Counted from the stretch's first letter, positions 30,831 to 32,884 are shown. The stretch: DNA of 64,000 nt from an uncultured Sutterella sp. (GCA_905213905.1 CAJMKD010000007.1:4388-68387); one strand, 5' to 3'. Translations and numbers: made by a program. Notes: a model not told the origin generated them from the sequence alone.

Positions 30831-31505
30831 TTAGTTTTCGTTGTCGCTCGGCGCGATCTGGTGGCGGGCAGCCCACGTCCAGGGGTTGCTGAGCCAATCA
30901 AGGAGGCTCGCCTTCTTCTCGGCTTCAAGCTTGCCGAGTTCGATCGCCTTGTCGAGAACCTTCTCGAAGCGGACGATTTCGTGGCAGGTCACGTGTTCGC
31001 GCTCGAGGAGCTTCTTCGTTTCGTCGATGCCGAACGACGTGATCGCGACGCAGTCGGTGACGATGGCGCCTTCGGCCTTGAGGCCTTCGATTGCGGAGAG
31101 AAGCGAGAGGCCCGTCGAGATGTGGTCTTCGATCAGGAGGACGCGCTTGCCCTTGACGTCGCCGCCTTCAACGCGGCTGTGGTTGCCGTAGGTCTTCGGC
31201 TGCTGGCGCACGAAGATCGAGGGCTTGTAGAGGCGGTAGGCGAGCGCTGCGGCGTGTGAGACGCCGGCGCCTTCAACGCCGGCGATGACGTCGTATTCGA
31301 GCTTCATCTGGTCGAGGCGCGAAACGGTCGTTTCGATGATGTCGCGCCAGGCATCCGGGTAGCACGTGAGCGAACGGTTGTCGACGTAGATCGGGGTGAC
31401 AAGACCGGACTTGAGGCGCATCGGGGCGTCCGTGAGGAACGAAACAGCGCCGTAGTGCACGAGGTGTTCGGCCAGGATGTCTTCAGCAATGCGGGATTCG
31501 TACAT
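30831..31505 (-). CDS. Orotate phosphoribosyltransferase-family (type I PRTase) protein
   Basis: 224 aa; PRPP-binding motif VLLIEDHISTGLS and OPRTase-like N-terminus (RLKSGLVTPIYVDN). Co-oriented immediately downstream of a CodA-like amidohydrolase, so it may not be the housekeeping pyrE. Confidence 0.7.
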   Translation of the reverse strand: MYESRIAEDILAEHLVHYGAVSFLTDAPMRLKSGLVTPIYVDNRSLTCYPDAWRDIIETTVSRLDQMKLEYDVIAGVEGAGVSHAAALAYRLYKPSIFVRQQPKTYGNHSRVEGGDVKGKRVLLIEDHISTGLSLLSAIEGLKAEGAIVTDCVAITSFGIDETKKLLEREHVTCHEIVRFEKVLDKAIELGKLEAEKKASLLDWLSNPWTWAARHQIAPSDNEN

Positions 31506-31533
31506 TGAAATTTCTCCGATTCTGTCTCAAGGG

Positions 31534-32529
31534 TTACGCGATGCCGATTGCCTTGCGGCCGTTGATGGTGGCGATCTTCACGAGTTCGTCGAAGTAGTCG
31601 AAGCGGCAGCCCGTGGCGAGCGTGGTCATTTCATGCCACATGTCGCCGGCGTTCCAGGGCACCATGGCGTCGCAGACGTTGTCGGTGCCGAGCGCAACGG
31701 TGATGCCGGCGGGAACCATTTCGTCGACCGGCGTCATGGAGTTGTGCATGGGGACGAGCTGTTCGGAGCGCGGCGTATCGATCCAGGCCGTCGGGCAGGC
31801 GATCATCATGACGTCGGCTTCCTTCATGAGCTTGTAGAGGCGCTGACGGTACTGGCGCGAGTGCGCAGCGATCGAGATGCCGTGAATGGCGACCACGCGG
31901 CCCTGCATGCCGTGTTCGATCGTCTTTTCGCAGAGCTGTTCGGTTTCGTATTCGAGCGATTCGTTGAACTGGTCAACGTGCACGTGCACCATCTTGCCGA
32001 GGCGCTTGGCCGTTTCGAGAATAATGTCGAAAGCTTCGGCACCCTTGCCGTAGTCGCGTTCATCGCGCTTCGGAAGCGCGCCGATGATGTCGACGAGTTC
32101 TGCGCCGATGTCAAACCACTTGCGGGCTTCCGGATTGATCACGCCCTTGAGCGTCTGGTTGGCAAACTTGACGACGAGCTGATCCTGATAATGTTCGCGG
32201 GCGCGCAGGCCGGCCTTGATGGCGCGGTCTTCCGACTGCGGGTCAATGTCCACGAAGGTAGCAAGCGCCGTGACGCCCTGGGCGATCTGGTTCTCAAAGA
32301 AGGTGGAGAAGCGGCGGTAGAAATCCTCTTCCGTCGATTCGCGCTTGAGTCGGTCGAGCGCGTCCCACTTCTGCTGCAGCGTGCAGGTGCGGCGCAGCTC
32401 CAGGACGTCGGGCGAGAGCGTGTAGGCGCGGTCGGCATGCGCGTGGGTGTTGACCCAGCCGCCGGCGGCCTTGATCGCGGGCTCGATCATGTCGCGGATC
32501 GTCAGGGGAGTGTTTTCGTTCGTGGACAT
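31534..32529 (-). CDS. Cytosine-deaminase-like amidohydrolase (metal-dependent hydrolase superfamily)
   Basis: 331 aa; HxH metal site (NTHAHADRA), HVHVDQ and ...ALGTDNVCD motifs aligning with E. coli CodA (PHIHLD, HCDEIDD, CFGHDDVFD); shorter than CodA and lacks its N-terminal beta-sandwich. Confidence 0.65.
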   Translation of the reverse strand: MSTNENTPLTIRDMIEPAIKAAGGWVNTHAHADRAYTLSPDVLELRRTCTLQQKWDALDRLKRESTEEDFYRRFSTFFENQIAQGVTALATFVDIDPQSEDRAIKAGLRAREHYQDQLVVKFANQTLKGVINPEARKWFDIGAELVDIIGALPKRDERDYGKGAEAFDIILETAKRLGKMVHVHVDQFNESLEYETEQLCEKTIEHGMQGRVVAIHGISIAAHSRQYRQRLYKLMKEADVMMIACPTAWIDTPRSEQLVPMHNSMTPVDEMVPAGITVALGTDNVCDAMVPWNAGDMWHEMTTLATGCRFDYFDELVKIATINGRKAIGIA

Positions 32530-32687
32530 TGACGAATCTCCTTCCGTAAAGATGATTAGCGGATTTGATGCAAATTAACTCGGCTACGAAAATGCCGTGA
32601 TCGTGGGCTTCACGTTTTCGCGGCTCAAATTGACGAAATTTTATGGATGAGCTCTATGTTCGTCAAGACTAAGAAACATTTAGTTTC

Positions 32688-32722
32688 ATTTGTCGATAGA
32701 TGAGCGTGTTTGATCGACAAAT
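32688..32722. promoter_or_regulatory. 10-bp perfect inverted repeat ATTTGTCGAT-N15-ATCGACAAAT upstream of the amidohydrolase/PRTase operon
   Basis: In an AT-rich intergenic stretch about 160-190 nt upstream of the 32529 start; a second short IR (GAAAC-attta-GTTTC) abuts it; operator-like. Confidence 0.4.
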
Positions 32723-32884
32723 AGTCGAAAAATTTCAAATACTTGATCGGGATTCAGGAAAGAAGGGGAATCCTTTGCAAAAAGGCGCCCGTCAATCGAC
32801 ATGCCGATGACGGGCGGAATTGGTTTGGCGCGGCTTTGCCGCTGCTGGCTTCTCTGCGGGAAAAAGAACGGCGTTCGGGCTGCG

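Follow-up and report, generated by a model that had tools for sequence, protein, structure and literature searches.

A conserved operon of a CodA-like amidohydrolase and an orotate phosphoribosyltransferase in Sutterella, and a possible argininosuccinate route into pyrimidine biosynthesis

The two genes and their products

A 64,000-nucleotide (nt) stretch from an uncultured Sutterella sp. (GCA_905213905.1 CAJMKD010000007.1:4388-68387; the whole stretch is hereafter called the window) holds, on its minus strand, a gene for a metal-dependent amidohydrolase followed by one for a phosphoribosyltransferase (PRT) of the orotate phosphoribosyltransferase (OPRTase) family. A sequence-only reading of the pair had suggested salvage of a non-canonical or modified base, with the first enzyme deaminating a pyrimidine-like base or hydrolysing its ring and the second phosphoribosylating the product. 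From family models, structure prediction, and gene neighbourhoods in other genomes, we consider it very probable that the operon serves de novo pyrimidine (uridine monophosphate, UMP) biosynthesis and not the salvage of odd bases. That the amidohydrolase would make dihydroorotate from argininosuccinate, releasing ornithine, is a further proposal to which we give slightly less than an even chance. The six steps of de novo UMP synthesis are regarded as universal, and the pathway would have to be read differently if a conserved, abundant family fed into it at an unexpected point. The operon consists of the following elements:

31534..32529, minus strand: amidohydrolase gene, 331 amino acids (aa), ATG start, GGAG-type ribosome-binding site
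31506..31533, minus strand: intergenic spacer of 28 nt, in which the PRT gene has its ribosome-binding site (GGAGA)
30831..31505, minus strand: PRT gene (OPRTase family, Bacillus-type PyrE-like), 224 aa, ATG start, GGAG-type ribosome-binding site
30741..30784, minus strand: terminator-like hairpin (16-nt arms, 81% complementary) plus T-run, 47 nt past the PRT stop codon

These coordinates agree with the two reading frames, their sizes, and the 28-nt gap as first described, and both genes are of coding type by codon-position GC content (third position, 0.84; second position, 0.39-0.40). Because neither promoter nor terminator was detected in the 28-nt spacer, the two genes are probably co-transcribed, and the hairpin past the PRT gene would mark the end of the operon.

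A Pfam scan of the amidohydrolase returned the generic Amidohydro_1 and Amidohydro_3 domains only, while among NCBIfam models the protein is a member of NF005365 (PRK06886), with 481.6 bits against a cut-off of 340 over residues 10-330 (profile positions 8-324 of 327). NF005365 is an equivalog model that carries the product name "hypothetical protein", and members of the family are labelled in databases as "amidohydrolase family protein", "cytosine deaminase", "ssnA protein", or "N-isopropylammelide isopropylaminohydrolase". All CodA models scored far under their cut-offs (NF005748, 104.1 vs 438 bits; NF006685, 84.8 vs 483; NF005759, 69.9 vs 403), and the closest solved relatives by sequence are cytosine deaminases, a 5-methylcytosine deaminase, and AtzC (E 1e-17 to 6e-20). 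The AlphaFold model (mean predicted local distance difference test score, pLDDT, 86.8) is a CodA/AtzC-like triosephosphate isomerase (TIM) barrel, for which the best Foldseek superpositions are 5-methylcytosine deaminase, CodA, and AtzC (template-modelling score, TM, ~0.8 on the query and ~0.65 on the target), with imidazolonepropionase and then isocytosine, guanine, and adenosine deaminases ranking lower. With E. coli CodA (PDB 1K6W) and the Klebsiella 5-methylcytosine deaminase (4R7W), the protein shares the TIM barrel, four aligned metal ligands, and a query TM of ~0.82, whereas it is 21-24% identical to them and ~95 residues shorter. In the alignment with E. coli CodA, ~30 N-terminal and ~65 C-terminal CodA residues have no counterpart, and these stretches form the two parts of the CodA beta-sandwich. 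The protein is CodA-like in fold, yet not CodA; the first description, of a CodA-like protein shorter than CodA and without its beta-sandwich, is borne out.

The metal ligands of the amidohydrolase are H29, H31, H184, H216, and D283, of which H29, H31, H184, and D283, unchanged throughout the family, align with CodA His61, His63, His214, and Asp313, while H216 lies opposite CodA His246. At the position of the catalytic CodA Glu217 (HxxE motif) the protein has Gln187, and Gln stands there in all 12 sequences of an alignment of close and medium relatives (A1). A family-wide loss of the deaminase glutamate was considered and dropped, since two distant patescibacterial members (loci L180 and L181) keep Glu. 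Salvage, in which the enzyme would deaminate or ring-open an exogenous non-canonical base (5-methylcytosine, isocytosine, or an orotate analogue) for the PRT to rescue, draws support from those distant glutamates and from the cytosine and 5-methylcytosine deaminases that are the closest solved structures, with isocytosine deaminase lower down, but it is opposed by the sub-threshold CodA scores and by the Gln in the window protein and most of the family.

AtzC of Pseudomonas sp. ADP (PDB 2QT3/4CQB) is the best PDB profile match (6.7e-27; 98 bits to the family profile), equals CodA as a structural match, and, like the amidohydrolase, has no glutamate where that of HxxE would align. AtzC releases an alkylamine hydrolytically from a ring carbon between two nitrogens, a chemistry to which we return below; unlike the amidohydrolase, to which it is 22% identical, it has ~400 aa with a sandwich domain and serves s-triazine catabolism, and no triazine (atz) genes were found near the amidohydrolase, whose neighbours are pyr and arg genes. 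Dihydroorotases were absent from the Foldseek top 50, and PDB sequences searched with the family profile gave none at E <= 1 either; alignment A1 has no invariant Lys at the beta4 position, where dihydroorotases carry the carboxylated lysine.

The PRT carries the Pfam domain Pribosyltran, and its top solved relatives are OPRTases (PDB 3M3H at 3e-28, 3DEZ, and 4OHC; range 1e-26 to 3e-28). All of its top NCBIfam matches are OPRTase models, the match to PRK00455.1-3 spanning residues 6-218 of 224, although every curated pyrE cut-off is missed (PRK00455.1-3, 140.1 vs 245 bits; TIGR00336, 91.6 vs 106.8). Its phosphoribosyl pyrophosphate (PRPP) motif VLLIEDHISTGLS and flexible loop VRQQPKTYGNHSRVEGG align with VMLVDDVITAGTA and NRKEAKDHGEGGNLVG of E. 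coli PyrE, and the loop keeps the catalytic Arg/Lys. In comparison with Bacillus-type PyrE (PDB 3M3H; PRK00455.1-3), the protein thus shares the full-length match, the PRPP motif, and the loop residues, and it differs in its sub-threshold scores, in a conserved C-terminal tail (WL..PW.WA...EN), and in always standing downstream of the amidohydrolase in Sutterellaceae. A role as a defence-system PRT was rejected, PADLOC having given only an 18.5-bit PRTase_III-A match for the PRT and nothing for the amidohydrolase.

Distribution and gene neighbourhoods

With the amidohydrolase as query, a scan of 185,579 species-representative genomes (one per species) found PRK06886-family relatives encoded in at least 485 of them. 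The best 80 of the 485 loci all belong to Sutterellaceae (Sutterella, Parasutterella, Duodenibacillus, Turicimonas-like, Mesosutterella, Dakarella, and "Aphodousia"), and the closest genomic match is Sutterella massiliensis An829, in which the amidohydrolase is 97% and the PRT 90% identical to those of the window, in keeping with an origin of the window in a gut Sutterella. In all 90 Sutterellaceae loci drawn from genomes and metagenomic contigs, no more than 300 nt separate the amidohydrolase from a PRT gene downstream, and the amidohydrolase is the better conserved of the two proteins in this family (75-97% vs 50-90% identity). The pair recurs in an unrelated lineage (L089), whose PRT is only 37% identical to that of the window. 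Since the two genes are adjacent in 90 of 90 Sutterellaceae loci and again in L089, they form a genuine, selectively maintained functional pair, so that the amidohydrolase does not vary freely beside a housekeeping pyrE, as it might have done. Upstream of the pair in L089 (628-9646) lie genes for an M20 peptidase, a 467-aa hydantoinase/dihydroorotase-like amidohydrolase, an Asp/Glu racemase, a DctM transporter, and an ornithine/lysine/arginine decarboxylase.

Other pyr or arg genes were found within 5 kb in none of the 90 Sutterellaceae loci, and pyrB, pyrC, and carAB were found neither in the window nor in ~1.3 Mb of Sutterellaceae flanks, a span that does not speak to genome-wide absence. 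In Pasteurellaceae the family is widespread, occurring in Glaesserella, Actinobacillus, Haemophilus, Aggregatibacter, Rodentibacter, Gallibacterium, and some Pasteurella, mostly as a solitary gene, with a canonical pyrE 1.5-4 kb away in some loci. A Haemophilus-type locus (L127, 4460-14059) has yejK, a yejM-like gene, and the amidohydrolase, and then genes for TetR (HI_0893-type), HlyD, and AcrB. The 90% cluster of this amidohydrolase has 890 members, with one sequence on at least 1000 contigs, and its names include Haemophilus (influenzae, haemolyticus), Aggregatibacter, and Rodentibacter. H. influenzae is listed as a pyrimidine auxotroph in a recent review (PMC13328217).

Outside Sutterellaceae, loci were de-replicated at 90% amidohydrolase identity to 35 lineages, 4 of them reached through a query with the ArgG fusion described below and the remainder chosen by amidohydrolase similarity, many on short contigs. 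A pyrD-like, OPRTase, or pyrF gene lies within 5 kb of the amidohydrolase in 22 of the 35 lineages, and a pyrimidine or argininosuccinate-related gene in 30. In metagenome-assembled genomes resembling Burkholderiales and in termite-gut contigs (L003, L090, L160-L164), the order is amidohydrolase, DHO_dh (dihydroorotate dehydrogenase domain) gene, PRT, and orotidine monophosphate (OMP) decarboxylase (OMPdecase) gene. The pyrF of these operons is genuine (208-234 bits against a cut-off of 110.6), while the DHO_dh protein (L003 9028-10104; L090 9031-10089) scores 67-80 bits where dihydroorotate dehydrogenase cut-offs are at least 269, and this type is often named "tRNA-dihydrouridine synthase" by NCBI. 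The same type occurs in Zymomonas, Microbacterium, and many Patescibacteria, and the idea of an enzyme specially co-evolved with the amidohydrolase was rejected on account of this wide occurrence. The divergent DHO_dh is probably an ordinary dihydroorotate dehydrogenase in function, and its operon position suggests a distinct, under-annotated class of that enzyme.

Orthologues of the window PRT, 43-54% identical to it (47-54% in the Burkholderiales-like and termite-gut loci), stand between DHO_dh and pyrF in L003, L090, L160-L164, L180, and L181. Because of this placement between dihydroorotate dehydrogenase and a bona fide OMP decarboxylase, the PRT reads from its sequence context as an ordinary orotate phosphoribosyltransferase of de novo UMP synthesis; because the amidohydrolase occurs with three OPRTase subtypes (window-type, Thermus-type, and E. 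coli-type), the PRT would use ordinary orotate rather than the special substrate first supposed. The general logic of the earlier proposal, that a hydrolase makes a pyrimidine ring and the PRT phosphoribosylates it, probably holds, whereas its modified-base salvage does not fit PRT orthologues in such a position. Strict conservation of the pair and a PRT under the curated pyrE cut-offs are compatible with salvage, but pyrD-like and genuine pyrF genes, for which base salvage has no need, accompany the orthologues, the amidohydrolase keeps company with three OPRTase subtypes, and in its leader the operon is similar to a biosynthetic pyr operon (see below). Neither a linked base transporter nor a match to codB or upp was found near the operon in the window or in the loci examined, so a tie to cytosine salvage is likewise unsupported, and we regard salvage as highly improbable.

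The most specific non-pyrimidine partner of the amidohydrolase is a 540-aa protein encoded directly upstream of or beside it in an environmental clade, in which ArgG is fused to a CarB-type domain. The ArgG part is a bona fide argininosuccinate synthase (496 bits vs a cut-off of 334), and the extra domain matches CarB 936-1050 (E 5e-12), the C-terminal allosteric domain of the carbamoyl-phosphate synthetase large subunit, which binds UMP and ornithine and mediates control by both. The fusion lies within 5 kb of the amidohydrolase in 20 of the 35 lineages and within 300 nt in 13 loci, and the source names of co-located fusions place the clade in Patescibacteria (Woesebacteria, Pacebacteria). 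In the reverse direction, starting from the fusion in Patescibacteria, all four sampled loci continued with the amidohydrolase (47-50% identical to that of the window) and then DHO_dh, and two of the four went on to a window-type PRT and pyrF. ArgH, pyrB, pyrC, and carAB were all absent within 9 kb of these four fusions, so that in such minimal operons the amidohydrolase would be the sole candidate for linking argininosuccinate to dihydroorotate. The full patescibacterial operon (L178-L181, L005, L094, L099; e.g., L180 9001-14160) encodes the ArgG fusion, amidohydrolase, DHO_dh, OPRTase, and OMP decarboxylase in reading frames that often overlap or abut, and in L181 it sits among thyA and genes for dihydrofolate reductase, deoxycytidine monophosphate (dCMP) deaminase, and thymidylate kinase. 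Of the 35 lineages, 7 have a DDAH/arginine-dihydrolase-like gene, which could be a source of citrulline.

Among other links to arginine genes, an argH-like lyase gene is adjacent to and convergent with the amidohydrolase in L087 (8001-10559), and argE-argC-argB-argH stand beside it in L112 (7986-13751), a Pasteurellaceae locus whose cluster members include Gallibacterium, Pasteurella, and Lonepinella. Recurrence beside ArgG fusions, argH, and argECBH could mean that the amidohydrolase is a housekeeping or repair enzyme of the arginine pathway, e.g., one that re-opens dead-end argininosuccinate anhydrides, with an indirect pyr linkage; the superfamily includes cyclic amidases, and argininosuccinate cyclises spontaneously to five- and six-membered anhydrides. 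We judge this improbable, however, as the partner in Sutterellaceae is always an OPRTase and never an arg gene, the patescibacterial operon runs straight into pyrD-pyrE-pyrF, and ArgH is present in only 4 of the 35 lineages.

The main alternative, and a plainer one, is that the amidohydrolase is a non-orthologous dihydroorotase, interconverting carbamoyl-L-aspartate and dihydroorotate on a mononuclear CodA-type scaffold, in which case the operon would be a pyrC analogue plus pyrE and the ArgG fusions an instance of the usual co-organisation of arginine and pyrimidine genes around carbamoyl phosphate. PyrC (types I and II) and the amidohydrolase are members of one superfamily, the latter fills the pyrC slot before pyrD-pyrE-pyrF in several lineages, no canonical pyrC lies within 5 kb of it in any of the 35, in L101 and L102 the gene adjoins pyrB/carAB or carA, and among its structural neighbours is imidazolonepropionase, a mononuclear enzyme that opens a cyclic amide. 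Yet dihydroorotases show neither detectable sequence nor top-50 structural similarity to it, and the conserved lysine is missing. In L101 (1-13700), one strand carries a pyrD-like gene, a crp-like gene, type I pyrC, carB, carA, and pyrB, with the amidohydrolase divergent from pyrB and followed by an EamA transporter gene, a DDAH-like gene, the ArgG fusion, and a genuine argH. The type I dihydroorotase there (350 aa, 5.6 kb from the amidohydrolase) has all catalytic motifs (HxH, Lys, His, His, Asp), making L101 the only locus with both enzymes; because this dihydroorotase is apparently functional, the amidohydrolase would not be merely a pyrC replacement. The dihydroorotase explanation also leaves unaccounted for both an ArgG-CarB-domain fusion that heads patescibacterial operons with no pyrB or carAB nearby and the adjacency to argH or argECBH, and we hold it to be possible though doubtful; under it, the amidohydrolase would represent a new structural class of dihydroorotase.

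A possible route from argininosuccinate to dihydroorotate

Since the pathway from dihydroorotate onward adjoins the amidohydrolase in many lineages, the enzyme probably acts at or before dihydroorotate, supplying the pyrimidine ring upstream of dihydroorotate dehydrogenase, and the PRT would then convert orotate and PRPP to OMP. Its scaffold is that of CodA, AtzC, and isocytosine deaminase, enzymes that displace an amine from an sp2 ring carbon, and not that of the dihydroorotases. Argininosuccinate suggests itself as the precursor because the pyrimidine context, the amine-displacing scaffold, and the ArgG-fusion partner are jointly fitted by it most simply. In the proposed scheme, argininosuccinate synthase would couple citrulline and aspartate, and the argininosuccinate would cyclise, on the enzyme or spontaneously, with ring closure from its guanidino group to the aspartyl beta-carboxylate, to give 2-(N-delta-ornithino)-dihydroorotate. 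The six-membered argininosuccinate anhydride is dihydroorotate with an N-delta-ornithino group in place of the 2-oxo group. The amidohydrolase would displace the ornithine hydrolytically from C2, yielding dihydroorotate and ornithine, much as AtzC displaces isopropylamine from a cyclic guanidine-type carbon, which we take as the precedent for this step. The ureido carbon would accordingly come from citrulline and not from carbamoyl phosphate, and aspartate carbamoyltransferase and dihydroorotase would be bypassed; in a variant, the acyclic guanidine would be hydrolysed directly to carbamoyl-aspartate and ornithine, with a normal dihydroorotase to follow. With a DDAH-like enzyme turning arginine into citrulline, the six-gene patescibacterial cluster of L005 and L099 could encode every step of a linear route that starts with arginine and aspartate and ends in UMP.

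In its widest form, the proposal is that PRK06886 defines an undescribed branch of de novo pyrimidine synthesis, from argininosuccinate to dihydroorotate or carbamoyl-aspartate plus ornithine, in which ornithine would act as a catalytic carbamoyl carrier, carbamoyl-phosphate synthetase, aspartate carbamoyltransferase, and dihydroorotase would be bypassed, and the ArgG step would be dedicated to the branch through the CarB-domain fusion in Patescibacteria. Such a branch would be used by gut Sutterellaceae, by many Pasteurellaceae (Glaesserella, Haemophilus, Aggregatibacter, Gallibacterium), and by Patescibacteria, and we put it forward tentatively, at somewhat below even likelihood.

Several points weigh against this scheme. 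The proposed reaction is without precedent, and the argininosuccinate link is carried over to the window from orthologues of 47-62% identity, with no argG found within 10 kb in either the Sutterellaceae or the Burkholderiales-like operons. Arginine and pyrimidine genes can cluster merely through their common use of carbamoyl phosphate, the ArgG fusion beside ArgH in L101 could serve arginine synthesis there, and the slot before pyrD-pyrE-pyrF is exactly the place of a plain dihydroorotase. The Glu of L180 and L181 at the CodA Glu217 position leaves the mechanistic signal of the active site unclear. As for regulation, the candidate leader hairpin upstream of the amidohydrolase gene (next section) gave 7 pairs in RNAalifold with one double change, an invariant outer stem, and loops of varying length, and the whole-leader z-score is -1.15.

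A full-text literature search of incomplete coverage found nothing on the PRK06886 family, a CodA-like dihydroorotase, or an argininosuccinate-to-pyrimidine route, and the ring-supplying step of this presumed de novo pyrimidine operon is probably novel. Were the argininosuccinate route to hold, pathway reconstructions and auxotrophy predictions would be altered for host-associated bacteria, among them Sutterella and Parasutterella of the gut, Pasteurellaceae pathogens, and Patescibacteria, the last being ultra-small organisms that are generally counted as incapable of nucleotide synthesis. It would also explain why an argininosuccinate synthase bears a regulatory domain of carbamoyl-phosphate synthetase, and it would give a function to a family that its NCBI model calls "hypothetical protein".

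The upstream region and the surroundings of the operon

Upstream of the amidohydrolase gene lie the following features, in the order of transcription:

32673..32688, minus strand: TGAAAC-TAAAT-GTTTC motif immediately upstream of the -35 hexamer, a candidate regulator site read from the alignment
32638..32666, minus strand: sigma-70-type promoter, -35 TTGACG (32666-32661), 17-nt spacer, -10 TAAAAT (32643-32638)
32626..32631, minus strand: AATTTG, 6 nt past the -10 hexamer, found as AATTT(G/A) in most Sutterella loci
32589..32624, minus strand: GC-rich, terminator-like leader hairpin GCCGCGAAAACGTG...CACGATCACGGC followed by a TTTT run, a candidate attenuator

Both promoter hexamers are kept across Sutterella species (the -35 as TTGAC), and the E. 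coli sequence shows exactly the same AATTTG as the initially transcribed region of pyrBI. Expression of pyrBI is controlled at this start region by reiterative transcription sensitive to uridine triphosphate (PMC7039003). The two promoter-leader regions share a -10 hexamer, AATTTG after 6-7 nt, and then a terminator hairpin before the first structural gene; unlike pyrBI, the Sutterella leader has no evident leader peptide, and its hairpin begins only ~8 nt after the putative, inferred transcription start. The region may hence be regarded, by analogy only, as a pyrimidine-responsive leader, in which case expression would be controlled by pyrimidines through the pyrBI-like start region and the leader terminator.

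A hairpin of -8 kcal/mol or below with a T-run, at most 150 nt upstream of the amidohydrolase gene, was present in 64 of 81 Sutterellaceae loci as against 8 of 243 shuffles, and the 64 loci carry 51 distinct hairpin sequences. Its energy is -11.4 kcal/mol in the window and -16 to -20 kcal/mol in relatives. Covariation was given up as proof of the hairpin and this recurrence across loci used instead; for certain genera, the hairpin may instead be that of the gene upstream. An Rfam search of 30000-33500 at E <= 1 returned nothing meaningful.

The sequence-only reading had singled out an inverted repeat in an unusually AT-rich 5' region as operator-like. The repeat, ATTTGTCGAT-N15-ATCGACAAAT, is real, with perfect 10-bp arms at 32688-32697 and 32713-32722, and a perfect arm of at least 10 with a spacer of at most 30 arose in 11 of 1000 first-order Markov simulations of the 355-nt upstream spacer. 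It is, however, lacking in L007, the closest relative (97% amidohydrolase identity), and 165 of the 168 upstream regions examined do not contain it, two of the three remaining matches being degenerate, and a conserved operator at 32688-32722 was therefore rejected in favour of a strain-specific repeat. The AT-richness likewise stands in part: at a GC content of 0.46, against ~0.61 for the window, the spacer is the lowest of all, and it lies near other promoter regions (0.49-0.50). Related TGTAAC-N4-5-TGT(T/A)TC sequences occur in many Sutterella species (L007-L037) at the place of the motif 32673-32688, and the common form TG(T/A)AAC-N4-5-(T)GT(T/A)TC appears from the alignment to be a better operator candidate than the inverted repeat.

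The genes around the operon are functionally unrelated to it and encode an autotransporter, a helix-turn-helix/transposase fragment, a YgbA-like protein, an M20 peptidase, a major facilitator superfamily transporter, a dCMP/cytidine-deaminase-like protein, EF-P, and EarP. The dCMP/cytidine-deaminase-family reading frame (36830-37291, minus strand; 153 aa; PF00383, 85 bits), a pyrimidine-nucleotide enzyme, is ~4 kb off the operon, with unrelated genes between them.

On the 3' side of the operon, the AT-rich repeat island noted in the first reading is present at 30497-30593. It consists of TATCATAAAT / TATGATAAAA units at 11-nt spacing, with four copies of a 32-nt family, and holds nested perfect palindromes (TTATCATAAA/TTTATGATAA, 30507-30526; CAAGTATCATA/TATGATACTTG, 30557-30582) as well as several promoter-like hexamer pairs; it looks like a set of iterons or a multi-site protein-binding array. 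The island is flanked by a 71-nt direct repeat whose copies (30405-30475 and 30656-30726) are 79% identical, the former overlapping the 3' end of an HTH_23/HTH_Tnp_1 gene (30085-30468); because the repeat brackets the island and one copy overlaps this gene, the arrangement suggests that the island was inserted with or beside a mobile-element remnant.

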